A stretch of DNA of 32,000 nucleotides, taken from Polynucleobacter necessarius (lineage in GTDB: Bacteria; Pseudomonadota; Gammaproteobacteria; Burkholderiales; Burkholderiaceae). Below, piece by piece: positions 10,649 to 32,000 of this stretch (within the stretch, counting starts at the first letter, position 1; each line of letters begins with the position of its first letter). The notes under the pieces were generated by a model. The model was given only the letters and a program-made list of their open reading frames with translations, was not told where the DNA came from and did not search any database. The position numbers and the translations under genes are program-made. The stretch spans positions 1,131,946-1,163,945 of the forward strand of contig NZ_LT606950.1 in the NCBI RefSeq assembly GCF_900095195.1, in the 5' to 3' direction.

Positions 10649-11053
10649 CTATTTGAGGTGGTTTGTGATTTCTGCAATACGTTGACCATACAGTCTGGCG
10701 GTCTCAAGGTCTCCGGGATTCACTTCATCCGCACTAGCATCAGATGGTGTTGTCATCATGGCACCCGAAGAGGATCCAACGTAATTCACATCGTCGCGTT
10801 TGGCGGTTTTTGAATTAGACGGCATTAAACCCGTTCCAACCCACAAGCCCGAATGTTGCATAGCCAGGGTGAAGAAATAATGCAAGGTGGAATGTTTATC
10901 GCCATTCATGGTTGCAGAATTAGTCAATCCGCCAAATACCTTATCTTTCCATTGCTGAGTAAACCATTGTTTTGAATTTGCATCAGCAAATTTTTTAAAT
11001 TGCCCACTTACCGTTCCCATATACGTTGGTGAGCCAAACACAAATACCATCAA
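10649..11053 (-). pseudogene. WrbA/flavodoxin-like NAD(P)H:quinone oxidoreductase, N-terminally truncated (~70 aa missing)
   Basis: The 134-aa ORF starts at VFVFGSPTYMGTVSGQFKKFAD...GLWVGTGLMP..., which aligns to residue ~75 onward of E. coli WrbA ([22 protein letters not shown]). The N-terminal strand and phosphate-binding loop are absent. The ORF abuts or overlaps the stop of the upstream MBL gene. Confidence 0.6.
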
Positions 11054-11908
11054 AACTGAACAACTTCCCCCTCGGTCATTGGGATGACCTTGATATTGCT
11101 ACCCTTCATTGCCGCCTGGAATTCTGCCAAAGTACCTTTAGCCATTGGATTTGAGTTGTAGTGCATTGGGATCACCATCCTCGGCTTAATCCAAGTTTTC
11201 AATGCAAATGCCGCATCATCTGGAGCCATTGTGAAGTTGCCACCAATAGGAATTAATACCAAGTCTGGTTTGTAGTGTTCGCTGATAAATTTCATATCAC
11301 TGAACAGGCCGGTGTCACCCATGTGCCAAATCTTGAAACTATTTTCCAACTCAATGATGTAACCCATCGCCTCACCGGCAGGATGAGCTTCCATTTTTTC
11401 TGTCGCAGGGTTTTTCCATACTAACAATGAGGAGTGCTCTGCTTGAACAGCAGTAACCTTGATACCAAGGCAGCGGGTTTACGCGACCTGTTTTGTTAAA
11501 TCGCCAACCCAGATCGGCAGGCAAGATACCTAAAGTTGTTAACGGGGTCACCATGTCTGCAGGGCCATAGAGCTTAATGTTGTTGGACTTGGCAACAGTT
11601 GGTGCATCACCAATATGATCAGCATGTGCATGGGTTACCAAAAGGAGATCAATTGGGCCAATCGTGGTCAAGTCATTTTTGTATTGCGGTGGAGTCTTAG
11701 GGCCACCAGTAATCCAAGGGTCAATCAAAGTCATCTTGCCCTCAGGGGATTTGATCCGAAAGCCATCCTGGCCAAACCACAGAAGCTCTGTTTTTCCTTT
11801 TGCAGTGGCTGCAGCTGTAGATTGCGCTGACACATAAGCGCTTGAGGTTGCTAGAAATGCAAAGGAAAATGCGTAACTAATAGCACTTCTTAAAAATGTA
11901 GATTTCAT
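11050..11908 (-). pseudogene. secreted MBL-fold metal-dependent hydrolase, single frameshift
   Basis: A signal peptide is followed by LLVTHAHADHIGDAP (HxHxDH) in ORF 11372..11908. The continuation GIKVTAVQAEHSSLLVWKNPATEKMEAHPAGEAMGYIIE...WHMGDTGLF...IPMHYN is in another frame (ORF 11050..11427). The shift lies at ~11462-11470. Confidence 0.75.
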
Positions 11909-12434: not shown

Positions 12435-13447
12435 TTATGGGATCAGCACAATCGCTCCGGAGACTTGTCTAGCCTCTACTGAACGGTGCGCATCAGCGGC
12501 TTGCTCCAAGGGGAACTTTGCTCCGATCTCAATTTACCCGCCCTTTTGCAATCGCCCCAAAGACAGCCTTGACATTCTCTTGCAAAAGAGTATGCGTTGC
12601 ATTGTGCGGGAAAACCGAAGGTCTGGTTAGGAACAAGCAACCCTTCTTATTCAAAATTTCAGGCTGAATCTCTGGAGCTGGCCCTGAAGCCGCACCAAAA
12701 AGCGCAACCGTACCAAACGGAGCAGCGCACTCCAAAGAACCTAAGAAGGTATCTTTTGCTACAGAATCACAGACAACATTTGCTTTTTTCCCGCCAGTCG
12801 CTTTGATAACTTCCTCAACCCAATTGGGTTGCGAATAATCTATGACGGCATCGCAACCAGCAGCCTTCGCTGCGACAACCTTAGCTTAGGAGCCCACGGT
12901 ACCCACCACAAACGCACCAAGCGCTTTTGCTCAGCTGGCCAATATCTGACCCACGCCTCCAGCAGCTGCATGAACCAATACGATATCGCCAGCTTTTACC
13001 TTGTATGTTTTTTGAACTAAATATTGTGCTGTCATCGCTTTGAAGAAAGCGGCTGCCGCTACTTCATCAGAAATATTGCTAGGTACTGGGACAAATTTGT
13101 CTTCAGCAACATTGCGGGCACTTGCATATGCACCAATACCAGCATTCATGTACATGACGCGATCACCAATTTTTAAACCAGTAACACCTTCGCCTAGAGT
13201 ATCAACTACGCCCACAGCCTCATGACCAAGTCCCGTTGAACTCTAAAGGGTAGACCCCAGAGCGTTGGTATATGTCGATGAAATTAAATCCAATTGCCGT
13301 TTGACGAAGCTGAACTTCACCCTTCGCTGGGGGTGGCAACTCTTCATCAACGATTTGGATACTAGAATGGTTGCATTCAATAAATCCGATTAATGGATAG
13401 GCCCTTGAAAGCGTTTTACTCTGATCATTTCGTTCTGCCGCTACCAT
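12435..13447 (-). pseudogene. qor: NADPH:quinone oxidoreductase (zinc-type ADH superfamily, Qor-like), two frameshifts plus two in-frame stops
   Basis: The pieces, in order:
- ...EVQLRQTAIGFNFIDIYQRSGVYPL, ending at a frameshift at ~13225.
- GLGHEAVGVVDTLGEGVTGLKIGDRV...VHAAAGGVGQILAS, ending at TGA 12933-12931.
- AKALGAFVVGTVGS, ending at TAA 12888-12886.
- AKVVAAKAAGCDAVIDY...FGAIAKGRV, ending at a frameshift at ~12530.
- IEIGAKFPLEQAADAHRSVEARQVSGAIVLIP, then the stop.
The 5' end is uncertain; the track ORF start at 13447 is probably over-extended. Confidence 0.8.
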
Positions 13448-14303
13448 CAGGGCATCGCTTTCCTATGGCAAAGTATTCACAACTGCGGGATTTGGTAGGC
13501 AAGCTTCCCAAGGTTGAGTTGCTTGAGGCCCCCCAGCCACGGATACCCAAATCCTGTTTGCTCACGATCCGAGTTATCTGCTGAAAGTCATTGAGGGCAA
13601 ACTCAGTCCTGACGAACAAAAGGAAATTGGCTTTCCATGGAGTGAAAAAATGGTTGAACGGTCAAGACGCTCTGCCGGCGCAACAATCGCTGCTGCTAAA
13701 ACGGCCATGCGAGAAGGTATCTCTGGAGATTTAGCAGGCGGCACGCACCATGCCTATCGCAATATTGGTAGTGGCTTCTGCGTATTTAATGACTCTGCAA
13801 TTGCAGCGCGTAGCTTACAAAAAGAAATTAATGCCAAACTCAAGGTTGTTATTGTCGATCTCGATGTACACCAAGGCAACGGCACCGCGTCGATCCTGCA
13901 GCATGACTCCAGCATTTTTACGCTATCCATTCATGGCGAGAACGACTTTCCCTTTCAGAAAGAACATAGCGATCTCGATTTAGGTCTGGCTGATGGCTGT
14001 GATGACAAAACCTACCTAAAAGCACTAACAAATTCATTGGATCAACTGGAGTCACGTTTTCATCCAGACTTTGTTATTTACTTAGCGGGGGCAGATCCGC
14101 ATGAGGGGGATCGCTTAGGTCGACTAAAAATCACTAAGGAGGGTATGAAATTGCGCGATGAAACAGTATTCCAATATGCGCTCGATCGACAGATCCCAGT
14201 AGCATTCTCCATGGCCGGCGGTTATGGCAAGGAAATGAAATCTACTGTTGAGATTCATTTCCAAACTATTCAGACCACCTTACATTTTCAAGGATGCTAC
14301 TGA
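13393..14303 (+). pseudogene. histone deacetylase-family (HDAC/AcuC-like) protein, one frameshift in a C6 run
   Basis: MDRPLKAFYSDHFVLPLPSGHRFPMAKYSQLRDLV...LLEAP runs up to the C6 run at 13529-13534. The frame then shifts to ATDTQILFAHDPSYLLKVIEGKLSPDEQKEIGFPWSEKMVERSRRSAGATI...LAGGTHHAY...GFCVFND...DLDVHQGNG. Apart from the single indel the gene looks intact, so a sequencing error is a live alternative. Confidence 0.7.
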
Positions 14304-14325
14304 GGGCATGGTAACCTACCAAACC

Positions 14326-14873
14326 CTATCTCTTCTTAGAAGAGCTCTTACCAGACGTTAAATTTCCCACGCTTTCGACGCTTTTCTCAAAGTTCGCAAA
14401 TGAATCTGCCATAGTAGCGCGAACTAATTCAAAATTTTGCAAAGCGTTATTAAACGATGTTTTAAAAATTGAGACGTAGGCTTCGCTACCCACTGGCGCG
14501 TTATCGGTCGCATCGTTTACAAAGTGGATAAATCCGCCTTTGAATCTTGAATCATGACTTCTGCAATATCGGATAACTCTTTATTGCCACTTTTTAATAC
14601 ATCGAGTAATTGCTGGTGATAATGCGCCACCTCTTTTGCGGCATCTTGAAGGACTTCTGCGTGCACATATTCAAATGCTGTCTTAGGGTCCTGAGTTTTC
14701 ATGAGCTCGGAGACACGCTTCTGAATTAGCTCCGCAAAATCTTGAGCAGCTTTTTGATTGATTTGCGCAATGGCTTGAGCACTTCCCATAGCAACTCTAC
14801 CAACCGCCCTGCTCGCATCTACTGCTTTTTGCTGATTATTAGATACAGACTCATTCAATGATTTTTTGCCCAT
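14326..14873 (-). pseudogene. phasin-family (PHA granule-associated) protein, frameshift removes the C-terminal ~60 aa
   Basis: The likely start is ATG 14873 (MGKKSLNES..., preceded by GGAAAGGGG). The frame stops at 14519-14517 after ...DSKADLSTL. The expected continuation (F)VNDATDNAPVGSEAYVSIFKTSFNNALQNFELVRATMADSFANFEKSVESVGNLTSGKSSSKKR is open in another frame down to 14326. The shift is at the A3/T3 run ~14521-14523. Confidence 0.65.
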
Positions 14874-14996
14874 AACAACCCCTTTCCAGATGAGATGTCG
14901 GGCTGGTATTGCCAGCCCCATGACATCAATCTACTCTCGTTATGAGGTGTTGCTATAGAGAAATACCAGTAGAGTCAAAATCATGACTCTACTGAT

Positions 14997-15647
14997 TTAT
15001 TTTGCAGGAGTGGATTTTTTGGGCAAGCTATTGAGAGTGCCCACAGCATTAAGCTGCTGATCCACTAAAAATAGTGCCCCGCCGTAATTTACTTGCAAGT
15101 CGTAGCCCGAGAGGCCAACGGTATAGAAGGTAATGCTGGGGTTAAATGAACGGATGGTTCCATCTGAACCCGCGGAGAAATTGGCTTCAACGTCTAGGCC
15201 GCCCTGCTCGCCATCAATTGAGGCCATCAAAAACTGATCGATTGCAGAGGTCGTTTTAAAGATGATGATTTGATATTGGGTCTGATAGCCTGCTCCTAAG
15301 CCTTCACCCGTTTTTACATCCTGCATAAAAACAGGCTCTTTTCGGCGCTTGTCATACAAAACACCTTCGCCACGTGCCACCCACCAATAAAACAGCATTC
15401 ACATTGGTTGTATTAAAGACTGCGTACCAGCCGCTTTGTCGATTTCTTTTTTAACCTTGGGGGCCTGCTTAATCAATGCATCCAAACCGGTTTTGGCCAT
15501 TTGAATAGTGGCTTCACGTTTTTGCATAATTTCTGCTTGCGTTAAGGGTTTGCCGTCTTTGCCGGTTGACTGACAGCCTGCTAGCACCAGAAGTACGCTG
15601 CCAAGAGCGACCGCAGTGCGAAGAAAAGTCATGAATATGGTGGTCAT
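14997..15647 (-). pseudogene. lipoprotein (lipobox LAGC), possibly SYLF/YSC84-like; paired frameshifts create an in-frame TGA
   Basis: The signal plus lipobox is MTTIFMTFLRTAVALGSVLLVLAGC. ORFs 15399..15647 and 14997..15398 share one frame and are separated by TGA 15401-15399. Between ~15428 and ~15380 the conserved-looking peptide YAVFNTTNVNAVLLVGG is encoded in a different frame. This implies two opposite-sign indels. Confidence 0.6.
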
Positions 15648-15806
15648 AAATGGGTTCTTTAGTGGCTACGTAAATTGTTCATTATGGTTATTTACCGTGA
15701 TTATCCTGATTTCCAGCAGGCTCAGCATAATTATTGATTTTTTAGATTATTTACATCTAAATTATTCATTATACAAATAATTAGATAGTCCCTAGAATGG
15801 AATCCG

Positions 15807-15835
15807 TTGTCAAAACAATATTGAATAAATCAAAT
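15807..15835 (+). promoter_or_regulatory. candidate sigma70 promoter of ahpC
   Basis: TTGTCA (15807-15812), a 17-nt spacer, then TCAAAT (15830-15835). This is followed ~30 nt later by the RBS GAAGGAG and ATG 15868. The match to consensus is weak and was judged by eye. Confidence 0.3.
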
Positions 15836-15867
15836 TCTATTAACCAACTTATTAGCGAAGGAGCACC

Positions 15868-16431
15868 ATGTCCATCATTAACACTACCGTAGCCTCGTTT
15901 AAAACCGAAGCGTTCCATAACGGCAAATTTGTCACTGTTACCGATGAGAGCATCAAGGGTAAATGGTCCGTTTTCATTTTCATGCCAGCAGCATTCACAT
16001 TTAACTGCCCAACCGAAATTGGAGACGCTGCTGATAACTATGCAGAATTCCAAAAGCTTGGCGCTGAAGTCTACATCGTGACAACCGATACACATTTCTC
16101 TCACAAAGTGTGGCACGAAACTTCACCAGCTGTTGGTAAGGCAAGGTTCCCATTGGTTGGCGATCCAACCCACACATTGACCAACGCATTTGGCGTACAT
16201 ATTCCAGAGGCTGGTTTGGCATTGCGTGGCACTTTTGTTATCAACCCAGAGGGCGTCATCAAAACTGCAGAAATTCACTCCAACGAAATCGCTCGTGACG
16301 TATCTGAAACATTGCGCAAACTCAAAGCTGCGCAATATACAGCCGCTCACCCAGGCGAAGTTTGCCCAGCAAAGTGGAAAGAAGGTGCTGCAACCTTAAC
16401 CCCATCTTTGGACCTCGTAGGCAAGATCTAA
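15868..16431 (+). CDS. ahpC: alkyl hydroperoxide reductase subunit C (typical 2-Cys peroxiredoxin)
   Basis: Intact 187-aa ORF with a strong RBS. It has the peroxidatic Cys motif FTFNCPTE, the resolving Cys GEVCPAKWKEG and an LDLVGKI C-terminus as in AhpC. Confidence 0.93.
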   Translation: MSIINTTVASFKTEAFHNGKFVTVTDESIKGKWSVFIFMPAAFTFNCPTEIGDAADNYAEFQKLGAEVYIVTTDTHFSHKVWHETSPAVGKARFPLVGDPTHTLTNAFGVHIPEAGLALRGTFVINPEGVIKTAEIHSNEIARDVSETLRKLKAAQYTAAHPGEVCPAKWKEGAATLTPSLDLVGKI

Positions 16432-16447
16432 TAGATTCTCGCCTTAC

Positions 16448-16478
16448 CCAATCAGACTCTCTTCGGAGAGTCTATTGG
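16448..16478 (+). promoter_or_regulatory. ahpC-ahpF intercistronic stem-loop (attenuator-like; no U tract)
   Basis: CCAAT(C)AGACTCTC-TTCG-GAGAGTCTATTGG forms 13 bp with one bulge and a TTCG tetraloop. It lies 17 nt after the ahpC stop. Confidence 0.45.
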
Positions 16479-16533
16479 AGAAGACTGGATCCTGCCCAAT
16501 AGACTCACAGAAATGAATGAAAAGGAAGTCATC

Positions 16534-18114
16534 ATGTTAGATGCCAATATCAAAGCCCAATTAAAAACCTACTTCGAGAAAATCGTTTCACCTATTACGC
16601 TCACTGCAACATTGGATGAGAGTCCTGCCTCCGCCCAAATGCTCGAACTCTTAAATGAAGTGGCTGAGCGGTCAGACAAGATCACCGTTAAAACGGATGG
16701 AAATGCACAAAACGTACCAAGCTTTACTGTAAGCAAGAACGGCGAAGATTCATGCATTACGTTTGCTGGCTTGCTCATGGGCCATGAGATGACTTCGTTC
16801 ATCTTAGCTATATTGCAAGCGAGCGGATATCCGCCTAGAATGGAACAGGGGATCATTGATCGCATACAAAAAAGTTGGATGGTAAGTTCCATTTTCAGAC
16901 ATTTATTTCTTTGTCTTGCCACAACTGCCCAGACGTTGTTCAAGCATTGAACCTAATGTCTGTCCTTAATCCAAATATTCAACATGAAATGATTGACGGC
17001 GCCCCCCTTCCAGGGCTTGGTTGATCAATATCAGATTATGGCTGTGCCAACCGTCATCCTGAATGGCGAATTTTGGCTCTGGTCGTATGAGTGTCGAGGA
17101 GATTATTGCCAAGTTAGATACTGGCAATACAGAAGAAGCTGCAAAGCTCAATGCCAAAGAGAGTTACGACATGTTGATTATCGGCGGCGGTCCAGCCGGT
17201 TCTGCGGCAGCAATCTATGCCGCTCGCAAAGGAATTCGCACGGGAATAGTGGCCGAGCGATTTGGTGGCCAAGTTATGGATACCTTGGGAATCGAAAACT
17301 TCATCTCTGTATCTCATACTGAATGGCCTAAGCTGGTTCAAGCATTGGAGCAGCACGTCAAAGACTACGAAGTAGACATCATGAATCTACAACGTGCTTA
17401 AGCCCTGCGTAAAACGAATAGCGGTATCGAGGTTGAAATAGCAAATGGCGGGGTATTAAAGAGCAAATCTGTCATCATCAGCACCGGTGCTCGTTGGAGA
17501 GAAATGAATGTTCCTGGTAAGCAAGAGTATCGCAACAAAGGAGAGTTGCCTATTGCCCACACTGCGATGGCCCTTTATTCAAGGGCAAGAGAGTCGCTGT
17601 GATTGGTGGTGGCAATTCTGGAGTAGAAGCTGCAATTGATTTAGCAGGCATTGTGAGTCATGTCACCCTGATCGAATTTGATAGCCATTTACGTGCGGAC
17701 GCGGTGTTGCAATCAAAGTTATTTAGCCTGCCCAATGTCACGGTCATTAAGAGCGCATTAACCAAGGAGGTTTTAGGTGATGGCAGCAAAGTAAATGGCC
17801 TACGTTACGAGGATCGCACCACCAAAGCAGAGCACATAATTGAGCTTGAGGGAATCTTTGTCCAAATTGGCTTATTACCCAATACAGAATGGCTTAAAGA
17901 CACCATCGATCTGTCGCCGCGTGGCGAGATCATTGTGGATGCAAAAGGCGAGACTTCTGTCCCTGGAATATTTGCCGCAGGCAACTGCACCACCGTACCC
18001 TACAAGCAAATTATTATTGCTATGGGCGAGGGTGCAAAAGCCTCACTCGGTGCATTTGATTACCCCATACGTCACTCGGTTCCGGAGGAAGAACCTAGCA
18101 AGATTGCTGCCTAA
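16534..18114 (+). pseudogene. ahpF: alkyl hydroperoxide reductase subunit F, four frameshifts plus one in-frame stop
   Basis: MLDANIKAQLKTYFEK... is colinear with E. coli AhpF. The lesions are:
- frameshift at the A6 run 16868-16873 (before [22 protein letters not shown])
- frameshift at the C6 run 17002-17007 (IDGA/PFQGLV)
- frameshift at the T4 run 17071-17074 (NGEF/GSGRMS)
- in-frame TAA at 17399-17401 (QRA*ALRK)
- indel at ~17541-17546 (before [30 protein letters not shown])
The remaining sequence reads through to 18114. Confidence 0.9.
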
Positions 18115-18166
18115 TAAAACAGGAAAAGCAAACGTTATTGGAGCGCCCTAACGCTGCAATCAAGAA

Positions 18167-18196
18167 CCCTAGAAAAATTTCTGGGGCTTTTGATTT
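18167..18196 (+). terminator. putative rho-independent terminator after ahpF
   Basis: CCCTAGAA-AAAT-TTCTGGGG (8 bp including one G-U pair) followed by CTTTTGATTTC. Confidence 0.45.
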
Positions 18197-18202
18197 CTCA
18201 TG

Positions 18203-18750
18203 CTAGCGCTTATAAAAACTCAAAGTGACTTCGCCCAGATTAATACCAAATTTACTCATTTGGGCCTTATTGATTATCACTTTGGGGGTAACCAAATACA
18301 TCCAATCGTCAAACTGCACATGGTAAATCGTGCCATCAACGGGAAGCGCTAAGGTATAAGCCCAATTGAGCGCATTACCTGCAGAGGCGCCATTAGATTC
18401 GCCCACGACATCATCCGCTTTCCCAATATATTTGCCGGGAGAAACCTCAGTCAATGTCCAGATACGCTTCTGCTTAGTGCCATCTGAATATTCAAAATTT
18501 CATCCAATGTACCAACTTTCTTGCCATCAATGGTTTTCCAATGGCATTGAATCAATACCGTGAACCGCTTGACAACCTCACCACTGCGATTGGTAAAGAT
18601 TCCATAGGCATCAACCGTTCCAGAAAAATACTCACTCAAATCCAGAGCTGGTTTCTCATTGGCGTATTGCGATATGGTCGGACTCGAACATCCAAATAGC
18701 AGAATTGTCGATGCGAACAGTGTGATGAACTTAGCAATCAATTTACTCAT
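18203..18750 (-). pseudogene. DUF3833-family lipoprotein, one frameshift
   Basis: MSKLIAKFITLFASTILLFGCSSP...YFSGTVDAYGIFTNRSGEVVKRFTV...GKKVGTLDEI runs up to a shift at the A4/T4 run 18494-18497. The frame then continues as FEYSDGTKQKRIWTLTEVSPGKYIGKADDVVGES...YHVQFDDWMYLV...LSFYKR. Confidence 0.65.
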
Positions 18751-19070
18751 GAACTACATACCTCTTGAAATATCGGTGGAGGGCAATGCATTCCCAACAA
18801 TTGCTCTCGCAACTTTGGCGCACTGGTTTTAGGGTCTAACCAAATCCCAAAAAATGCCTTGGAAAAATCTGCTCCCGGAATTTGCGCAATAGCTTTACCA
18901 TCGTAGTAGAACGTCGTTCCCTGCTTCGGAAGGTAGATTGCTGTAATGTTTTGACCAGGCTCAACATTGGGCAAAAATGAGGCTAATTCCTTGCCCCATA
19001 TCTGAGCCTTGCTTTCGGGCACGCCCAATTTCTTCATCCCTTCGACTGTGCGTTCAGCAATAGCGTGTAA
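18747..19070 (-). pseudogene. chalcone-isomerase-like family protein remnant (5' half deleted)
   Basis: The C-terminal ~100 aa read ...[88 protein letters not shown]. The upstream part of ORF 18747..19136 is antisense to the SDR remnant and is not homologous sequence. There is no signal peptide and no N-terminal domain. Confidence 0.5.
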
Positions 19071-19599
19071 AGAAAAGTTTGGACGCATTGATGTGCTCTT
19101 TAATAATGCCGGTATAGGCGCGCCCGCAGTTCCCATGGAAGAGCTGACTTACGAACAATGGATGAATGTTGTCAATGCCAATTTATGTGGTGCATTTTTA
19201 TGCTCACAAGAGGCGATGCAGATGATGAAAGCTCAATCCCCGCAAGGAGGTCGCATTATCAATAATGGTTCGATCTCTGCGCATGCACCTGGGCCAATGT
19301 CGGCACCCTACACCAGTACCAAGCATGCTATCTCAGGACTGACGAAATCGATTGCTTTAGATGGGCGGCCTTTCAATATTGCGTGCGGTCAAATTGGTAT
19401 CGGCAACGCCGCTACTGAAATGACAGAACGTATGGCAGCCGGAATCATTCAAGCCGATCATTCCATCAAGGTTGAGCCCCGCATGGATGTGGATCATGTT
19501 GGTCAAGCGGTCCTGCACATGGCTCAGTTGCCACTCGAAAGCAATATTCTCAATATGACCATTATGGCTACAAAGATGCCATTTGTTGGTCGCGGTTAA
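19050..19599 (+). pseudogene. SDR-family oxidoreductase remnant (Rossmann N-terminus, ~70 aa, deleted)
   Basis: Recognisable sequence starts at ...[22 protein letters not shown] (NNAG motif). The catalytic S...YTSTK (YxxxK) is present. There is no TGxxxGxG and no plausible start or RBS. The 5' end meets the CHI-like remnant head-to-head at ~19050-19075. Confidence 0.7.
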
Positions 19600-19995: not shown

Positions 19996-20924
19996 TCATC
20001 GAAGTTCATTAATCGAGGCTGGTGCTGGATGCAAATCACATGTTCGGCCTGCTTTAGCAACCTGCCCCGGAACAGCATGTCCAACAATAGTCGGCAACTC
20101 ACGTGCCAATACCAACAATTTAGGGAGATCAATACCCGTGTCGTAACCCATTGCATCGAGCATATGAATCGCATCCTCACTGGAAATATTGCCGCTAGCG
20201 CCAGGTGCATACGGACAACCACCCAAACCGCCAAGCGAGCCATCAAACCGAACAATCCCTGCCTGCACAGCAGCCAACACATTGGCTAAGCCATACCTCT
20301 AGTATTGTGAAAATGCATTGTGAGCTGCGTTTGTGGAAATTTTTTCTGCAGCGATTCGGCAATACGTGTGACTTGGGCTGGGTTGGCCATGCCCGTGGTG
20401 TCACAAATGATCAGTCCTCGCACTCCCAAATTCACAAAACGTTGGGCAAACTGCTCCACCACTTCCTGCGAAACATCACCCTCCATCGGACATCCAAAAC
20501 AAGTGGATAAGGAAACATTGATTGGCGCCCCACCATTGACATATTGAATAACTTCAGCCAAACCTGCAAAACTTTTTTCTCGTGTCATCCGAAGATTGGC
20601 AAGATTATGCGTTTCGGAAGTGGACATTACCAAATTGAACTCGTCTGCCTTTGACTCTAATGCGCGCTCTGCTCAGCGCAAATTGGGAACGAGAACGGTG
20701 TATTCAACGCCAGAAACTCGTCGTATTTTCCCCATGACTTCTTCCGCATCCCTCAGCATTGGAATAGCCTTTGGAGAGGTGAATGAAGCGACTTCAATTT
20801 TAGCAAAACCGCAGTCACTCAAACCATTAATCAGCCTAACCTTGTCTTCGGTAGGAATAAAGTTGGGCTCAATTTGAAAGCCGTCACGCGTTACTACGTC
20901 ATTGAAATATATTCTAGTCATCAT
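19996..20924 (-). pseudogene. hydroxymethylglutaryl-CoA lyase (HMGL-like), in-frame stop plus frameshift
   Basis: MMTRIYFNDVVTRDGFQIEP...VLVPNLR is followed by TGA 20675-20673 in frame. It continues AERALESKADEFNLVMSTSETHNLANL...MHFHNTRGM up to a frameshift at ~20283-20290. It then reads GLANVLAAVQAGIVRFDGSLGGLGGCPYAPGASGNISSEDAIHML... to the stop at 19998-19996. Confidence 0.85.
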
Positions 20925-21510
20925 ATTTTCTTATTGAGTAAATGCCACGCAACGGTCAAGGCATGGAGCTTTAAGAGTGGTTTAAGTTCACGCAGCAAGG
21001 TGATCATGCCGCCGGCATCATGGAAGTTCTCCATATAATGATCGCCTGATAGCTTAAGATCTAACAAGACAGGGGTTTCATCACCCATTTTGTCTAATGC
21101 ATCGAGATCAATCTCTAGACCCATGCGACCCGCTATGGCAGCTAGGTGCACAATACCGTTAATAGCCAGTAAGACACGCATCGCATTCTCAAAAGCATCA
21201 GCAGTGAGAATCTTGTCAATCGTCAGACCATCCTTGGCCATCTGCACGGCCCTGGCGCCCGTCTCCTCTGCAACCCGAATACGATCAGCAGTCACTGCGG
21301 GCGGCGATGCACCACCTGGCACTGTCATTCCTAATGCTTCAGCAATACACGCCATCGTGCTGGCTGTTCCCATGACTGAACAGGTACCACACTGGCTACG
21401 AGTTGATCGTTCACTTCATCTTTTTCAACGTCATCAATTTCACCTGCGCGAAATTTTCCCCAATATCGACGACAGTCTGTACAGGCACCCACACGCTCAG
21501 AGCGATGTGA
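20921..21510 (-). pseudogene. IlvD/Edd-family dehydratase remnant (internal ~200 aa only)
   Basis: ...GACTDCRRYWGKFRAGEIDDVEKDEV...S(frameshift)CGTCSVMGTASTMACIAEALGMTVPGGASPPAV...AFENAMRVLLAI(N)GIVHLAAIAGRMGLEIDL...TPVLLDLKLSGDHYMENFHDAGGMITLLRELK. The GTCxxMGTASTM and AEALG blocks are typical of the sugar-acid dehydratase branch. Both the N-terminal ~150 aa and the C-terminal ~200 aa are missing. The 3' end runs into the HMGL start (ATGA overlap). The 5' boundary is uncertain. Confidence 0.6.
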
Positions 21511-23717: not shown

Positions 23718-23794
23718 TGGTGGGCCCACCAGGACTTGAACCTGGGACCAAAGGATTATGAGTCCTCTGCTCTAACCAACTGAGCTATAGGCCC
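23718..23794 (-). tRNA. ileX: tRNA with CAU anticodon, most likely tRNA-Ile2 (lysidine type) rather than elongator Met
   Basis: The minus strand reads GGGCCTATAGCTCAGTTGGTTAGAGCAGAGGACTCATAATCCTTTGGTCCCAGGTTCAAGTCCTGGTGGGCCCACCA (77 nt, encoded CCA). It folds as a cloverleaf with a 7-bp acceptor stem and a CT-CAT-AA anticodon loop. It is close to E. coli ileX as I remember it, including the C4-G69 and C5-G68 pairs. Its position just downstream of rpoD matches E. coli. Confidence 0.9.
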
Positions 23795-23807
23795 GTTAGT
23801 CTTTGGT

Positions 23808-26444
23808 TCAACCTTCCTCAAGGAAGGTCTTGAGTTTATCGCTACGGCTTGGATGACGCATCTTGCGAAGAGCCTTCGCTTCAATCTGACGAATACGCTC
23901 ACGAGTAACATCAAACTGTTTACCAACTTCTTCAAGAGTGTGGTCTGTGCTCATCTCAACACCGAAGCGCATCCGCAATACTTTTGCCTCGCGTGGCGTC
24001 AATGAATCCAAAACATCCTTCACCACATCGCGCATAGAGTCGTGCAATGCCGCTTCTGCTGGGGCCAAGGTGTTGCCATCCTCAATAAAGTCACCCAAAT
24101 GGGAATCTTCATCATCGCCAATTGGCGTTTCCATAGAAATCGGCTCTTTCGCAATTTTCATGATCTTGCGAATCTTATCCTCAGGAATCTCCATCTTCAG
24201 CGCCAAGGTTGCAGCATCTGGCTCATGACCAGTTTCTTGCAGAATCTGACGGCTGATACGGTTCATCTTGTTGATGGTCTCAATCATGTGAACGGGGATG
24301 CGGATCGTACGTGCCTGATCAGCAATCGAGCGGGTAATTGCCTGACGGATCCACCATGTTGCATAGGTAGAGAACTTGTAACCACGACGGTATTCAAACT
24401 TATCTACCGCTTTCATCAAGCCGATATTGCCCTCTTGAATTAAGTCCAAGAACTGCAAACCACGATTGGTGTATTTCTTTGCAATCGAAATCACCAAGCG
24501 CAAGTTGGCTACGGTCATCTCACGCTTTGTTTCACGAGCCCGCTTCTCACCCGCAATCATTTGCTTGTTTACTTCTTTTAATTCCGGGAGCGGAATCACG
24601 ACATTCTTTTGAAGATCAATTAATTTCTGTTGTAGCTCTTGAATTGCAGGTACATTGCGTTGCAAGAGAGCACTGTAAGGCTTGCTCTCTTTTAGCAACT
24701 TATCAGTCCACTCTAAATTCATGGACATCTTTGGGAAGTCTTTTAATACTTCATCACGATTCACGCCAACCTTATCCACTAACAAGCTAACAATGCCACG
24801 CTCTAGTTTCCATACTTGGTCTACTTGTGCGCGCATGGTGTCGCACAACTTCTCAACACTCTTCACAGTTAAGCGGAAACCGAGTAATTCAGCGCGAATG
24901 GCATTTTGTGCCTTGATGTAGGCGGGACTGTTATAACCATCCTTGTCAAAAGCGCGACGCATCTTATCAGCTTGGGTTCGTACGATGGCGAACTTTTGCA
25001 ATGAGATTTGTTTCAACTCTTCAAGCTGTTTAGCATTTGCTGTTGCAGCGCCACCGCCGCCTTCGTCATCAGCCTTATCTTCGCCTTCATCGGCATCTTG
25101 GTCGATCTCTGGCTCATCGGGCCCAAGCTTGATGTCTTCCGCATTAGGATCGACAAGGCCATCAACAAATTGGTCGATCTCCAGCTCACCAGCAGCAATC
25201 TTGTCAACGTTACTGAGGATTTCCGCAATTGTTACTGGGCAAGCAGACAATGCCATCACCATATCTTTGAGGCCAGCCTCAATCTTCTTGGCAATAACGA
25301 TTTCACCTTCACGCGTTAACAAATCAACAGTACCCATTTCGCGCATGTACATACGCACAGGGTCAGTAGTACGACCGAATTCAGAATCCACTGTTGAAAG
25401 AGCTGTTTCAGCCTCTTCCTCCGCTTCCTCTTCAGAAACTGCGGCTGCCGTGTTGTCTGACAAGATTAATGTTTCTGCGTCAGGAGCCTGTTCGTAAACC
25501 GTAATACCAATATCGTTTAACAAGCTAATCAGTGTTTCCAATGCATCAGCATCAGAAAGCTCATCTGACATCACGTCATTCATTTCGCCATGAGTCAGGT
25601 AACCCTTGGACATACCCATCTTGATCAATGTCTTCAGACGAGCACGACGCAATTCTTGTTGCTCTTCAGTACCCAACTGCTGAGCTGCGAACTCCTTTAA
25701 GAGCGCTTTTTCTTTCGCCTTACGCTCGCGAGCTTTTTGACGATCTGTTAATACCGGTTCAGGAGCATCTGCTGGGGCATCATCTGCCTTAGCTTTACGA
25801 CCACGTTTTTTCTCTTCTTCAGGCGCCGCAACTACTTCTGCGACTTTACCTTTTTTGCCCTTTAAGTCTTTTGCGTCTTCAACCTTTACAGCAACCGCTT
25901 TGCCTTTTTTTACTGGCTCCACTTTTACTTCAGCTTTGGTGGCTTTCGCTGGCTTAGCCAACTCCTTAGCAACAACCTTTCCTTTTGGCGCAGGCTTCAC
26001 AACTGCTTTGACAGTCTTAGCTGGAACTTTAGCTACTGCCTTTGCCTTTTGTACTAGCTTTGCAGTCACCTTAACGGATTTAGATGGTGTCTTTGCCTTT
26101 GGCGCTGGCTTTGCAGGAGCCTTGGCAACCACTTTTGTCTTTGGCGCAGGTTTGGCTGGTGCTTTCGCTTTTGTCACCGGCTTTGCAGGGGCCTTAGTTC
26201 TTGCAATAGGTTTGGCTGGAGCTTTAGCAACAGGCTTTGTCTTAGAAACCGGTTTTGCAGGCGCTTTTGCTTTTGCCTTAGCGACTGGCTTCGCAGGAGC
26301 TTTGGTTTTTGCAGCAGGCTTTGCAGGAGCTTTGGTTTTTGCAGCAGGCTTTGCAGGAGCTTTGGTTTTTGCAGCAGGCTTTGCAGGAGCCTTGGCAACG
26401 GTTTTTACTTTTGGAGCTGGTTTTTTGGTCTTGGAATTCGGCAT
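23808..26444 (-). CDS. rpoD: RNA polymerase sigma factor RpoD (sigma70) with a ~260-aa lysine/alanine/proline-rich N-terminal extension
   Basis: Uninterrupted 878-aa ORF. From ~residue 269 it is colinear with E. coli RpoD ([11 protein letters not shown]..., [101 protein letters not shown]). Residues 1-205 are KAP/KPA repeats. Confidence 0.95.
26293..26390. repeat. perfect 30-bp tandem repeat (3.3 copies) inside the rpoD 5' coding region
   Basis: The unit gcaggagctttggtttttgcagcaggcttt occupies 26293-26322, 26323-26352 and 26353-26382 identically, with a partial copy to 26390. It encodes [10 protein letters not shown] x3 in frame. Degenerate copies of the same motif extend across ~26100-26420. 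Confidence 0.9.
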
Positions 26445-26680
26445 TTATTAGCACTTACTCACATTACTGTTGTTGAACAGGACTGATCTGATTAAGCACA
26501 GCCCCGCAATTTACTTACCCTCTTACCCTGAATTTCAAGAAAATCAAGCGCAAGTGACTGAATTAATTCGTTTTTTTCTTGGGAAAAGAGGATTATAGTC
26601 GATTGCGACTTTTTAAGCCCCCAATTACCTAAAAATATGGGGTAATTTCAGCCGATTTCCAGGGATGTTTCAGTAAATTC

Positions 26681-28621
26681 TTAAGAGAATTTGAGTTTTT
26701 CGCCCAGTTCCCGATAGCGGGCTTTGTCTTGCTCAGTTACCGTGCTGCCCCCAATCTTTTGAGCAATTTCCGTCATTTCCTGTTTCAAGTTGGCAATCTC
26801 CAGCTTTTTAAATGCACCCTCTAGATCAGCCATTGCCACATCAAGATCCAGATCGGATCCCAAAATACGCTTTCGCAATACTTCATACATTGAAGCAAGA
26901 TCACTGCGAGACAGTTGATCCTGGAATAACGCAAAAGCGCCAGCACCTACCGTTTCGGAATTGCTGTTGGCATCAGCAGACAATTCCACCTGATCACATT
27001 GCGCAAGCAAATCTTTCATCAAGGTAAGCGCATTAGCTGATCTCTGCTCTGCTGCCTTGAGCGCTAGGTTACGACGATGGCTGTCGAGCGCTTTACCTAA
27101 ATGTGGAAACTGGATGAGCACTCGTAATAATTGTTCTGCTAAATCCATTGGCGCTTTTGGAGGCTCAATGTTTTGAGTTGCAACACGTTTGGCGGCCTGC
27201 CATGGCGCACCTTGTCTGTTACTAGTGTTGGCATGCGCTGTCTGTGCATTCATACCACTTTGCGATTTGACGGCTTTTGCTTGATAAGCCGCTTGAGGCG
27301 CAGGCACAACGGTTAAACCGCAAAATGCCTCAAGCTCTGCTGGTGTAGTGTTTGTGCGAATAGCGAGTTCACGAAGTATCTGGGTGCGTAGGGCAATCGG
27401 CGGCATCGACAGCAATAACGGCTTTGCGGCGTGATGGGTGTGGGCCCTGCCTTCTGGGGTGGTGAGGTCATGTCTATCGCTAGCCACTTTGAAGAAAAAA
27501 CTCGAGATCGACATAGCCTCTTGAATAACTTTTTCAAAGGCTGTCTCGCCATACGCTCTGACATAACTATCGGGATCGTGTTCGGCAGGTAGGAATAAGA
27601 ACCGAATTTCTTTATCGTCTGACATGAGCGGTAAGCATGCTTCAAGCGTACGTTGCGCAGCGCGCTGTCCCGCAGAGTCGCCATCAAATGAAAAAACGAC
27701 CTTATCGGTTTGGCGCAAGAGCATGCGTACGTGGTTCGCAGTGCAAGCGGTGCCCAAAGTTGCTACTGCGTTTGGGAATCCCAATTGCGCCAGTGCAACC
27801 ACATCCATGTAGCCCTCACAAACTAAGACATACTCTTTTGCACGAATCGCTTGGCGTGCCTCAAACAAACCGTAGAGAGTATTGCCTTTTGAAAAAAGCG
27901 GAGTCTCTGGAGAATTCAGATACTTTGGCTCACCTTGGTCTAAGATGCGACCCCCGAAGCCAATCGTTTGTCCCTTTGGATTACAAATCGGGAACATAAT
28001 GCGATCTCGGAAACGGTCATAACGTTTCGCAGGAGCACCTTCAGCCTGCTCACCCTGAATCACCAGACCGCCTTCCACTAAGGCTTTCACCGCTTCGTCA
28101 TTGGTATATGGCCCAAATACGGCCTCTAGACCCTGCCAGCCATCGGGGGCGTAACCAAGCGCGTAGCGTTTCGCAATCTCGCCAGTAAGGCCGCGCCCCT
28201 TTAAGTAACCAATTGCGCGCAGACTGTTTTTCAGTTGTTGGCGATACCAATCAGCTGCAGAACTCATCACTTCACTCAAAGCCATCGTCTGCTGTTTCTT
28301 GGCAATGTCATTAGCATTGCGCTCTTCACGCGGCACATCTAAACCAGCAGACTGCGCTAGCTCCTCAATTGCATCAACATAACCCAACCCGGAATATTCC
28401 ATCAAAAAACTGATAGCCGATCCATGCGCGCCACATCCAAAGCAGTGATAGAACTGCTTGGTTGGCGAAACTGAAAATGACGGGGATTTTTCAGAATGAA
28501 AAGGGCACAAACCTTGATAGTTTGCACCTGCTTTTTTTAACTTTACGTGTTGCCCAACCACATCAACGATGTCAACCCGATTTAACAGATCGGCGATAAA
28601 GGATTGTGGGATGAGCGCCAT
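26681..28621 (-). CDS. dnaG: DNA primase
   Basis: Intact 646-aa ORF. It has the zinc-ribbon CPFHSEKSPSFSVSPTKQFYHCFGCGAHG, TOPRIM motifs (VLVCEGYMDV; FDGDSAGQRAA) and a C-terminal DnaB-interaction-type helical domain. Confidence 0.93.
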   Translation of the reverse strand: MALIPQSFIADLLNRVDIVDVVGQHVKLKKAGANYQGLCPFHSEKSPSFSVSPTKQFYHCFGCGAHGSAISFLMEYSGLGYVDAIEELAQSAGLDVPREERNANDIAKKQQTMALSEVMSSAADWYRQQLKNSLRAIGYLKGRGLTGEIAKRYALGYAPDGWQGLEAVFGPYTNDEAVKALVEGGLVIQGEQAEGAPAKRYDRFRDRIMFPICNPKGQTIGFGGRILDQGEPKYLNSPETPLFSKGNTLYGLFEARQAIRAKEYVLVCEGYMDVVALAQLGFPNAVATLGTACTANHVRMLLRQTDKVVFSFDGDSAGQRAAQRTLEACLPLMSDDKEIRFLFLPAEHDPDSYVRAYGETAFEKVIQEAMSISSFFFKVASDRHDLTTPEGRAHTHHAAKPLLLSMPPIALRTQILRELAIRTNTTPAELEAFCGLTVVPAPQAAYQAKAVKSQSGMNAQTAHANTSNRQGAPWQAAKRVATQNIEPPKAPMDLAEQLLRVLIQFPHLGKALDSHRRNLALKAAEQRSANALTLMKDLLAQCDQVELSADANSNSETVGAGAFALFQDQLSRSDLASMYEVLRKRILGSDLDLDVAMADLEGAFKKLEIANLKQEMTEIAQKIGGSTVTEQDKARYRELGEKLKFS

Positions 28622-28648
28622 AAAGCTAAGAGTATGCGAGGAGTTCTC

Positions 28649-29095
28649 TTATTTTGCGAGGGCAGCTTTTACCAAGCCGGATACCTTACCCATATCCGCC
28701 TTACCAACCAACTGACCCTTGAGAACACCAATCACTTTACCCATGCCTTGTGGGCCAGCTGCGCCAGTGGATGTCACCGCAGCTGCTACGGCAGCTTGTA
28801 TTTCCGCATCTGACATTTGCGCCGGCATATACGCTTGCAAGATCACCATCTCGGCAGATTCCACAGCAACGAGATCATCGCGCCCAGCTTTTTTAAATTG
28901 GGAAATGGAATCTTTACGCTGCTTAATCATTTTTTCTATGGTGGAAATGATGGCAGCATCATCGATTACAATGCGATCATCCACTTCACGCTGTTTGATG
29001 GCAGCCAACAAAAGACGGATTGTGCCAAGTCGTGCAGTCTCTTTTGCACGCATAGCAGATTTCATATCTTCGGTAATTTGATCTTTCAGACTCAT
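28649..29095 (-). CDS. GatB/YqeY domain-containing protein
   Basis: 148-aa ORF reading MSLKDQITEDMKSAMRAKETARLGTIRLLLAAIKQREVD...GKVSGLVKAALAK. It is typical of the YqeY family and sits between rpsU and dnaG. Confidence 0.85.
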   Translation of the reverse strand: MSLKDQITEDMKSAMRAKETARLGTIRLLLAAIKQREVDDRIVIDDAAIISTIEKMIKQRKDSISQFKKAGRDDLVAVESAEMVILQAYMPAQMSDAEIQAAVAAAVTSTGAAGPQGMGKVIGVLKGQLVGKADMGKVSGLVKAALAK

Positions 29096-29137
29096 GGTGT
29101 GATCCTAGTTTTCTGATGTTGAATGTAGTCTAGCGAC

Positions 29138-29180
29138 TAAAAAGCAAAAACCCGCTGCGTATCACCGTCAGCGGGTTTCA
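29138..29180 (-). terminator. rho-independent terminator/attenuator between rpsU and yqeY-dnaG
   Basis: The minus strand reads AAACCCGCTG-ACGGTGATACG-CAGCGGGTTT followed by TTGCTTTTT. It lies 33 nt downstream of the rpsU stop. Confidence 0.65.
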
Positions 29181-29212
29181 AAGCTTCTTCGGTGAAGAGA
29201 GCTTTAAATTTT

Positions 29213-29425
29213 TTAGTAAAGCTTCTTTGGCAACATTTGGCTGCGGATACGCTTATAGTGGCGCTTAGCTGCAGCAGCCTTTTTGCGCTTACGCTCAGCC
29301 GTTGGCTTCTCGTAAAACTCGCGGGCACGCAAGTCTGTCAAAAGACCATTTTTCTCAATGGTGCGCTTGAAACGGCGCAAAGCCACTTCAAATGGTTCGT
29401 TTTCGCGGAGGCGGACTGTAGTCAT
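29213..29425 (-). CDS. rpsU: 30S ribosomal protein S21
   Basis: 70-aa ORF: [59 protein letters not shown].... This is a canonical S21. Confidence 0.95.
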
Positions 29426-29501
29426 ACTTATTTAACTCGTATATGCTCGATAGATATCGAAAAATTAACTGAATTGTAATTCTAGCACGACCAAGAAAAA
29501 A

Positions 29502-30575
29502 ATGATTGTCTTAGGCATAGAAACCTCCTGTGACGAAACTGGGGTGGCTTTATACAACACAGCCCCCTGGGAAGCAGGAAAACCGGCATTTCAGGGTATT
29601 TTGGGCCAAGGGCTGCACTCTCAGATCGCCATGCACCGGGATTATGGCGGGGTGGTGCCCGAACTCGCTTCCAGAGACCATATTCGTCGCGTTTTACCCC
29701 TTTTGGACCAGTCTTTAGCCCAATCTGGCCTGAAATTGGCCAATATTGACGCGGTTGCCTTCACACAAGGACCTGGCTTGGCTGGAGCCCTCTTAGTCGG
29801 CAGTGCGTTTGCCAAATCTTTAGCCCAGGGTCTCAATTTACCCTCCATTGGGGTGCACCACCTTGAGGGGCACCTGTTATCCCCCCTGTTGGGTCAAACT
29901 GCGCCCCAATTTCCCTTTATCGCCCCCCTTGTGTCTGGTGGTCATACTCAGCTCATGAAAGTATCTGGCATTGGCCAATATGAACTATTGGGCGAGAGTT
30001 TGGATGATGCGGCGGGAGAGGCATTTGATAAAACCGCCAAATTACTCGGGTTGGATTATCCCGGTGGTGCCGCAATTTCTAAATTAGCCGAGCAGGGTAG
30101 ATCGGGAGTATTTGATTTGCCAAGACCGATGCTTCATTCAGGCGATTTGGATTTTTCGTTTTCAGGATTGAAAACTGCGGTGCTGAATCAAGTAAAGAAA
30201 TTTGAAGGATTAAACATTTCCGATCCTCAAGCGGTTGCTCAATTTCATGCAGATCTAGCACGAAGTTTTGTCGATGCAATTATTGCCGTCTTAGTTAGTA
30301 AGTCAGAAAAAGCGCTGAAGCAAACTGGCTGCAAACATCTGGTGCTTGCGGGTGGCGTTGGCGCAAATACGCAATTGCGTACCGCACTAAACGCCAGCGC
30401 TTTGCACAATCGCTTTGAGGTTCATTACCCACCCCTAGATCTGTGCACAGACAATGGCGTGATGATTGCCTTTGCTGGAGCACTACGCTTGTTAGCTAAA
30501 AATAATGGCGCCACGACTTCTGGCGCCTTCGACATTAAACCCCGCTGGGATTTGCAAAGTAATAATCTGATTTAG
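29502..30575 (+). CDS. tsaD: tRNA N6-adenosine threonylcarbamoyltransferase TsaD
   Basis: 357-aa ORF: [18 protein letters not shown]...VPELASRDH...[12 protein letters not shown]...LVSGGHTQL...[21 protein letters not shown]. It is divergent from rpsU, as in E. coli. Confidence 0.93.
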
Positions 30576-30589
30576 AGCTGATTAATGCC

Positions 30590-31414
30590 CTATTTTTGGT
30601 GGCTAATACGCGCAAATGCATGTGATTGCGAATAGATTCGAAGTTCTCCGCCTCGACCACAAAAACTGAATACGCTGATCTGCCTTGAGGTTGCCAGCGA
30701 CGTCACGGACTAAATCCTCTACAAACTTTGGATTACTGTAGGAGTGCTCGGTAACCCATTTCTCATCCGGCCGATTGAGTAAACCCCAGAGTTCGCTAGA
30801 AGCTTCGCTCTCTGCTGCGGCAACTAAATCTTCTACGGTCATTTGCGTTTTGGAATCTAACGTGACAGTCATGGTGACATGTGAGCGTTGGTTGTGAGCG
30901 CCAAACTCAGAAATCTCTTTTGAGCAAAGGCAAAGACTCATTACTGGCACTTGCGCTCGCAAACCCAACTCTACTTCGGCACCACCGGAAGCATTTTGTT
31001 TGACATGCGCCATCCAAGTTACTTCGTAATCCATCAAACTTTCCACGCCTGAAACAGGGGCTGCTTTTTAACGAAGTGGGTATAGGTGAATTGAACATGA
31101 CCTTCCTTAGCATCTAACAAAGGAAGCATTTCTTTTGCTAAGGCAACTACCGTGGCGCTATCAACCGCCTGATCTTGTTTTTGCAGGAGCGCCATGAAAC
31201 GTGACATGTGCGTGCCCTTCACATGTGCAGTCCACCTTGGATGAGCGCGCATTGCCTATTGAGCAAGTCGGTATTCGTGGTGTGCGTCATCCGTTAATTA
31301 TTCGTAGCGCAACCGGTAACTTTCCATCGGTCGGTACATTTGAGATGGATGTCGCCCTACCTGCACATCTGGCATAGCGCTTGCTTTGAGAAAGGCGGGG
31401 TTCATGTCATTCAT
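30590..31414 (-). pseudogene. folE2: GTP cyclohydrolase FolE2 (type IB), internal 130-bp inversion plus at least three frameshifts
   Basis: ATG 31414 gives MNDMNPAFLKASAMPDVQ. The next 43 codons are encoded on the opposite strand (31231-31360). The gene resumes with PAHVKGTHMSRFMALLQ...[10 protein letters not shown] frameshift at ~31060-31070 leads into [16 protein letters not shown]...[29 protein letters not shown]...[26 protein letters not shown]...DQRIQF. A frameshift at the A5/T5 run 30661-30665 leads into [11 protein letters not shown] further shift at ~30615-30630 leads into [11 protein letters not shown] and the stop at 30592-30590. Confidence 0.85.
31231..31360 (+). other. inverted segment of folE2 (codons ~19-61 now on the plus strand), flanked by the 8-bp inverted repeat ATGTGCAG (31223-31230) / CTGCACAT (31361-31368)
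   Basis: The plus-strand frame tcc acc ttg gat... translates as STLDERALPIEQVGIRGVRHPLIIRSATGNFPSVGTFEMDVAL. This is the conserved FolE2 N-terminal block expected between DVQ and PAHVKGTHMSRF of the minus-strand gene. Confidence 0.8.
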
Positions 31415-31439
31415 AGCTCTATTTTCAAGCAAAACGATC

Positions 31440-32000
31440 TTATTTGCCTGAAATTACCGAATTTGCCATCAATACTGCCGGAAAACGCTTCTTAATCGAG
31501 TTGGTAATACCTTCGACATCCAGGCCACACTTGGTCATTAGTAATTGATAGTCGCCATGTTCAATGAATTCATCTGGAAGACCTAACTGCAGTAATGGCT
31601 TATAAATGCCCAATGATGAGAAGGCTTCAAGACAGGCGCTTCCGGCGCCACCAGCAATTGCACCATCTTCAATCGTCACAAAATAATCGTGCGTTTCCGC
31701 CAATGATTTAATGAGATCAACATCCAGCGGTTTTACAAAACGCATATTTGCAACTGTCACATCCACTCCCTCAGCAGCTTCTAATGCAGCGTATAACAAA
31801 GTACCGAACGCTAGAATTGCGACACGCTGTCCAGCAGGCGCGTTCGACTTGCGACGAATTTCCCCTTTACCTAACGGTAAAGTGCGCAACTCTGTGGATG
31901 GGGTAGCGCCTACACCAGAGCCGCGCGGATAACGAACGGCCGTTGGATGCGGTTGGTGAAATGCAGTAGTCAATAAATCTCGGCATTCCGCCTCATCCGC
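31440..32000 (-). CDS. dxs: 1-deoxy-D-xylulose-5-phosphate synthase, C-terminal part (5' end beyond the right edge)
   Basis: The frame is open to base 32000: ...[29 protein letters not shown]...[10 protein letters not shown]...[10 protein letters not shown]...[17 protein letters not shown]...[20 protein letters not shown].... This is the typical Dxs transketolase C-terminal domain. The stop is at 31442-31440. Confidence 0.9.

Follow-up and report, generated by a model that had tools for sequence, protein, structure and literature searches.

A 130-bp inversion between 8-bp inverted repeats of native coding sequence in a folE2 pseudogene of Polynucleobacter necessarius

The stretch of DNA analysed here (hereinafter, the window) is 32,000 nucleotides long and belongs to Polynucleobacter necessarius (assembly GCF_900095195.1, contig NZ_LT606950.1). 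Close to its right end, a gene is found whose coding sequence changes strand twice: it begins on the minus strand, continues on the plus strand, and is then resumed on the minus strand. The question raised by this locus is whether the middle part of the gene has been turned around in place and, if so, by which route this might have occurred and what has become of the gene. The initial annotation had proposed that 130 bp of folE2 were inverted between the two copies of an exact 8-bp inverted repeat. In the following, the restored folE2 is the sequence in which positions 31231-31360 were flipped in silico and three deleted bases were put back, and the matches of the gene to protein families refer to this form. 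The features of the locus are the following:

29502-30575, plus strand: tsaD, intact, the convergent neighbour of folE2; its ORF of 357 aa has the length seen in relatives, with 92-94% identity
30590-31414, minus strand: folE2 (GTP cyclohydrolase IB) pseudogene, from the ATG at 31414-31412 to the TAG at 30592-30590; restored product 88-92% identical to intact Polynucleobacter FolE2 over residues 1-276
31223-31230 (extended, 31220-31230): inverted-repeat arm ATGTGCAG, read on the gene strand as CTGCACAT, part of the Pro-Ala-His codons
31231-31360, plus strand: inverted block of 130 bp, encoding FolE2 residues 19-61 (STLDER...DVAL) on the wrong strand
31361-31368 (extended, 31361-31371): inverted-repeat arm CTGCACAT, read on the gene strand as ATGTGCAG, part of the Asp-Val-Gln codons
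31440-32000, minus strand: dxs, represented by its 3' part; it lies upstream of folE2, is read in the same direction, and is open and colinear up to the end of the window

Starting from the ATG at 31414, the minus strand encodes MNDMNPAFLKASAMPDVQ, followed by 20 antisense codons (VGRHPSQMYRPMESYRLRYE) and by a TAA stop codon at 31298-31300; the frame had been described as running straight into stops after ...PDVQ, a wording that has to be corrected for these 20 codons. On the opposite strand, the ORF spanning 31201-31377 reads ...HVQSTLDERALPIEQVGIRGVRHPLIIRSATGNFPSVGTFEMDVALPAHLA and alone matches PF02649 at profile positions 4-52 (E = 6e-7), and the minus-strand frame of folE2 picks up again at about 31230, proceeding downward, as ...AHVKGTHMSRFMALLQ.... 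When 31231-31360 is reverse-complemented, a single continuous frame is obtained (...AMPDVQSTLDER...DVALPAHVKGTHMSRF), exactly as the initial annotation had anticipated. The restored conceptual product (276 aa) covers positions 1-257 of the 260-position profile PF02649 (E = 2.1e-79, 267 bits). With 241.6 bits, it also exceeds the cut-off of 215 set for the NCBIfam FolE2 equivalog NF010200, and it is colinear with the solved FolE2 structures 8g6c and 3d2o over residues 1-273 (E = 1.8e-84 for 8g6c). A homologue scan with one genome per species yielded 490 relatives, the best 80 of which, almost all Polynucleobacter, harbor an intact folE2 whose product shares 76-92% identity with the restored protein across residues 1-276. 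The gene order tsaD/folE2/dxs is common to the window and to three relatives, referred to as L081 (the free-living genome CP061311), L082 (a metagenome contig), and L083 (the 1.7-Mb genome LT615227.1, with split genes). The gene is a pseudogene of the FolE2 family, orthologous to the folE2 of Polynucleobacter and devoid of an intact ORF.

The comparison with the relatives places both ends of the block to within a few nucleotides. When the unmodified window was compared by blastn with L081, L082, and L083, each of them returned three HSPs in the orientation +/-/+, i.e., 23756-31230 on the same strand, 31225-31368 on the opposite strand (E = 1e-41), and 31362-32000 on the same strand again, the last one being an ungapped HSP of 639 bp that covers the dxs part. 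Adjoining HSPs have 6-8 bases in common, and these lie only inside the arms (31225-31230 and 31362-31368). With respect to all the 74 loci with a match at the DNA level (L081-L083 and 71 further ones), the block is reversed relative to its flanks; all the 74 DNA-comparable relatives are non-inverted, and the inversion is seen in the window genome only. Once flipped, the window sequence runs gap-free through both junctions in alignments to 12 relatives. Compared with the ancestral arrangement, the segment has been reverse-complemented exactly, no base having been gained or lost, and the HSP lengths agree with this. The block is 79-85% identical to its orthologues, similarly to the flanks, and contains neither extra DNA nor a duplication. 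That the block is inverted, that the breakpoints fall within the arms, and that the arms are of native origin is what these alignments demonstrate.

As had been reported, the two arms (31223-31230 and 31361-31368) are exact reverse complements located 130 nt apart, and 10 of 11 positions match when they are extended to 11 nt. In the ancestral orientation, they correspond to GAT-GTG-CAG (Asp-Val-Gln, residues 16-18) and CCT-GCA-CAT (Pro-Ala-His, residues 62-64). The same codons occur in relatives with intact genes, where 4-8 of the 8 arm positions match (5-7 in most of them) and where every difference falls on a synonymous third position (CAA/CAG, GCG/GCA/GCC). Two loci with an intact folE2 (L019 and L034) even possess the identical exact repeat (8/8) with its 10/11 extension, in the un-inverted state. 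These data bear out the view that the arms are native DVQ and PAH codons and not the ends of a mobile element. Pairs of 8-bp inverted repeats with spacers of 20-300 nt are common, there being 197 of them in the window (about 1 per 160 bp) vs. about 142 in shuffled sequences, so that the repeat is by itself unremarkable; its exact coincidence with both breakpoints defined by homology has, for a given pair of breakpoints, a chance of roughly 1e-4. The repeat is a chance substrate, and it is the inversion event that is rare. Synonymous sites are saturated between the restored folE2 and its relatives (dS 1.3-1.9); the arms of the direct ancestor may have matched at 8/8 positions, or at 7/8 and then have been homogenised by the inversion itself.

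The inversion is not the only lesion of the gene. The three frameshifts that the initial annotation had placed at about 31065, at 30661-30665, and at about 30620 all turned out to be single-base deletions, in agreement with its statement that the gene is dead, and they are accompanied by three replacements at conserved residues:

31065-31069, minus strand: 1-base deletion in an A-run, A6 in relatives and A5 in the window (alignment to 7-9 relatives), with a frameshift after ...THFVKK
30661-30665, minus strand: 1-base deletion (CAGT^TTTT), CAGTCTTTTG in relatives and CAGTTTTTG in the window; second frameshift
30620-30621, minus strand: 1-base deletion, CACAGCGC in relatives and CACATGC in the window; third frameshift
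30927-30929, minus strand: P163L, a Pro-to-Leu change (codon CTT) within the invariant CPCSK motif
30774-30776, minus strand: K214N, a private change at a residue invariant in 70 relatives
30628-30630, minus strand: H263R, in SIHNHS, a private change at a residue invariant in 70 relatives

The three shifts add up to -3, which brings the final ten codons, together with the stop codon TAG at 30590-30592, back into the original frame. Because of the 130-bp inversion, the three 1-bp deletions, and the replacements P163L, K214N, and H263R, folE2 is not a functional member of its family. At 150 protein columns, each conserved in at least 97% of 70 relatives, the window shows three private replacements and lacks one residue because of the third deletion, as compared with a median of 0 in the relatives; none of the private replacements at conserved columns falls within the inverted block. 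The dN/dS of the restored folE2 vs. eight relatives ranges from 0.019 to 0.055 (median 0.032), a value close to that of the intact relatives compared with one another (median 0.034), and its DNA identity to the relatives is 81-83% (median among relatives 81%). Since these values are like those of intact genes, the gene was under normal purifying selection for nearly its whole history, and the substitution pattern shows that folE2 died recently relative to the divergence from the known relatives.

The remainder of the window offers a context for this loss. The genes rpoD, dnaG, and yqeY are intact and maintain the same order as in the relatives, and the ccm operon for cytochrome c maturation is intact at 3.6-10.4 kb. 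On the other hand, scans of individual ORFs revealed that the regions at 10.6-23.4 kb and 1.2-3.5 kb contain almost only gene remnants with partial matches to Pfam domains, such as:

11053-11908: metallo-beta-lactamase remnant, split in two
13650-14300: Hist_deacetyl remnant, profile positions 78-291 of 298
20924-21373: ILVD_EDD_N remnant, profile positions 162-310 of 316
1246-2013: chimeric ORF combining TctC and 2OG-Fe_Oxy_2
photolyase remnant, profile positions 1-83 of 164
RNase_T remnant, profile positions 63-161 of 164

One gene, ahpC (15868-16431), is intact and adjoins a broken ahpF-like reductase. The reductase is distributed over at least two ORFs (region 15868-18114), with positions 1-70 of Pyr_redox_2 at 17063-17398 and positions 148-291 at 17599-18111. 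A rearrangement of another kind can be observed in the region 12436-19080, where the segment 18204-19080 is displaced, in the same orientation, with respect to the syntenic metagenome contigs L085 and L088; in these contigs, its counterpart sits between the matches of 12436-13344 and 13405-14973. Furthermore, about 2.5 kb and about 4.8 kb of the L085/L088 reference sequence are absent from the window.

The alternation of remnants and intact housekeeping genes is typical of a young reductive genome, and a symbiotic lifestyle may be surmised solely from the load of gene remnants. The picture resembles that of P. necessarius living in Euplotes, an endosymbiont for which 269 pseudogenes have been reported (PMC5632650): intact housekeeping genes are found among frameshifted and truncated remnants, and folE2 is still near full length with small lesions. 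In recently established endosymbionts, however, the usual inactivating lesions are frameshifts, stops, and deletions, and an in-place micro-inversion like that of folE2 is unusual among them. In L083, a reduced-looking Polynucleobacter, the FAD_binding_2 and Rieske dioxygenase genes close to the locus are split and folE2 is intact, with 275 aa, which implies that the loss of folE2 is not common to all the reduced lineages. In Polynucleobacter sp. UB-Piko-W3 (L014:3001-4001), about 176 bp from the 3' end of an intact folE2 are repeated in tandem immediately behind the gene (...ARISHKK*).

As to the origin of the inverted segment, the fact that it is an exact reverse complement lying in its original place, with breakpoints inside the repeats and without gain or loss of bases, points to an inversion mediated by the short inverted repeats. 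We consider it likely, with a probability of roughly 0.8, that a genuine micro-inversion occurred in vivo between the 8-bp repeats in a dispensable folE2 of a decaying lineage, and that template switching is the likeliest route. According to this model, the 130 bp enclosed by the two 8-bp inverted repeats (10/11 when extended), both belonging to coding sequence, would have been inverted inside folE2 by an inter-strand switch during replication. The nascent strand would leave its template within one arm and re-anneal to the complementary arm on the opposite strand; the spacer would then be copied backwards, and a switch back would take place at the second arm. By putting residues 19-61 on the wrong strand, the inversion alone is sufficient to destroy folE2, and it would have been tolerated because folE2 was dispensable in this lineage. 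Inter-strand template switching is indeed documented to invert the spacers of inverted repeats (PMC5453318, PMC8604942). In the restored single strand, the two arms pair with each other in the MFE fold of the DNA and also in the centroid fold. The region as a whole gains no stability over shuffled sequences (z = -0.96), and nothing structural marks out the site. One of the arms (31223-31230) lies within a locally self-complementary patch at 31204-31235, comprising the palindrome CACATGTG and the repeat ACATGTG at 31204-31210 and 31220-26; judging from its letters, this patch might favour mis-annealing.

A different molecular route to the same, equally real inversion is break-and-join recombination between the 8-bp arms, either by a reciprocal intramolecular exchange or by a double-strand break whose repair through microhomology-mediated end joining put the fragment back the wrong way round. 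It would yield the very product expected from template switching, the breakpoints again lying inside the arms, and no sequence footprint sets it apart from the latter. RecA-mediated exchange usually needs a homology far above eight base pairs, and the folE2 arms fall far below this requirement. Schofield, Agbunag, and Miller (1992, cited in PMC4272514) reportedly obtained inversions of a segment of about 800 bp in the lac region of E. coli between inverted repeats of 12 and 23 bp, in an engineered and selected system and with a dependence on RecA and RecBC. These inversions, like that of folE2, are chromosomal and took place between short, non-specialised inverted repeats; the arms (12-23 bp vs. 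8 bp) and the segment (about 800 bp vs. 130 bp) are, however, larger than in folE2. The length of the folE2 spacer, 130 nt, is atypical for short-range template switches (PMC8604942), and slightly favours either break-and-join or a rare event. On balance, we regard break-and-join as a possible but rather unlikely route. The earlier suggestion of recombination or template switching between very short repeats thus stands as far as a documented mechanism for such events is concerned, even though the two routes are inseparable at this locus.

A much less probable explanation is that the inverted orientation is an artefact of sequencing or assembly, arising as a chimera from strand-displacing whole-genome amplification, which links inverted sequences through short complementary stretches, or as a mis-join during finishing. 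Uncultivable symbionts are often sequenced after amplification, and the inverted orientation is known from one assembly. Among 5.8 billion proteins, there is no near-identical lineage that could provide an independent assembly, the best match of TsaD being 94%; exact look-ups of the window TsaD and of the 58-aa ORF spanning the junction retrieved no match in the assembly collection. Nevertheless, two precise chimeric junctions would have to dominate the consensus, repeats of 8 bp are not collapsed by assemblers, and, apart from the inversion, both the block and its flanks are colinear and gap-free. Moreover, a gene with three frameshifts and three radical substitutions is one in which a neutral inversion in vivo is unproblematic. 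The correctness of the assembly is an inference, as is the molecular route proposed above, i.e., template switching.

The idea that the segment is a programmed invertible element, such as an inverton or a phase-variable switch under the control of a site-specific recombinase, can practically be dismissed: the only point in its favour is that the segment is bounded by inverted repeats, whereas the 8-bp arms are conserved codons found in the same place in intact orthologues, un-inverted in 74 out of 74 cases, there is no recombinase gene within about 8 kb (where rpoD, dnaG, yqeY, rpsU, tsaD, and dxs are located), and the frameshifts make the gene irreversibly dead, so that any switching would be without output. 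An IS or MITE insertion is rejected because the block is native folE2, with no foreign DNA and no target-site duplication, and an alternative functional gene model common to the relatives is rejected because all the 74 comparable relatives are un-inverted.

Template-switch inversion belongs to a class of mutations that has been described by the Ripley model and by the four-point template-switch model of Löytynoja and Goldman 2017 (PMC5453318). The initial annotation had considered such events to be rarely caught; this view has to be tempered, since examples have been published from E. coli, yeast, and human/chimp. The folE2 case shares with this class the reverse-complemented segment between short inverted repeats, the breakpoints within the arms, and the fact that the arms are ordinary sequence. 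In yeast coding genes, the inversions that Abraham and Hazkani-Covo (2021; PMC8604942) attributed to template switching have arms of no less than 9-10 bp around spacers of 2-5 nt, whereas in folE2 the spacer is 130 nt and the arms are 8 bp (10/11 when extended), and the mechanism is here read from the sequence alone. The spacers in yeast coding genes would be short because long inversions are selected against in live genes; by the same reasoning, the long and frame-destroying inversion of folE2 would have survived because the gene was dead or dispensable. A closely similar bacterial event is the 24-bp intragenic inversion between 8-bp inverted repeats that was fixed in an evolved E. coli KLY clone, where it disrupted an antitoxin gene (Goldberg et al. 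2014, PMC4272514). Both inversions are bacterial, non-programmed, and intragenic, have arms of 8 bp, and inactivate the product, the KLY event being also homogeneous and non-switching. However, the KLY inversion measures 24 bp and arose in the laboratory, under selection, as an adaptive change, while that of folE2 measures 130 bp and is natural, in the course of an apparently neutral decay.

It might be asked whether micro-inversions recur in this genome. Within about 15 kb of comparable sequence, blastn and tblastx disclosed no segment in the opposite orientation other than the folE2 block; this sequence comprises about 8.3 kb (23.7-32 kb) compared with L081-L083 and about 7 kb of the region 12.4-23.5 kb compared with the metagenome contigs L085, L086, and L088. 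One inversion in about 15 kb, in spite of the abundance of 8-bp repeat pairs, suggests that the process is rare and gives no sign of an elevated rate, nor does micro-inversion show up in this window as a frequent way of decay. A reference-free scan, in which segments between inverted-repeat arms of at least 6 bp were flipped and the restoration of an ORF was evaluated, gave 48 hits, mostly frames open on the antisense strand, and was too noisy; it missed the folE2 inversion because the start of the gene is only 46 bp from one of the arms. It seems improbable, though conceivable, that chance micro-inversions on the 8-bp scale are a recurrent and overlooked gene-killing lesion in the early decay of endosymbionts, with the folE2 inversion as a possible first hit. 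If this were true, pseudogene callers would score such inversions as "truncated" or "frameshifted", and the rate of micro-inversion might be raised by the loss of replication or repair functions.

The folE2 inversion is a well-resolved example of an already documented class of mutations and entails neither a new mechanism nor a new system. As a natural in-place inversion, it is unusually clean: each breakpoint is placed with a precision of 8 bp, the arms consist of native codons, and 74 un-inverted orthologues are available for comparison, while its spacer of 130 nt is much longer than those surviving in live genes. Annotation pipelines may mislabel inversions of this kind as truncations. The pathways to folate and to queuosine/7-deazaguanine precursors start with the reaction catalysed by FolE2; the recent loss of this enzyme is documented here in the lineage of the window, and in LT615227, also a reduced Polynucleobacter genome, the gene is still intact. 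Pseudogenes of young reductive genomes can, as this locus illustrates, keep types of mutation that are normally removed by selection.
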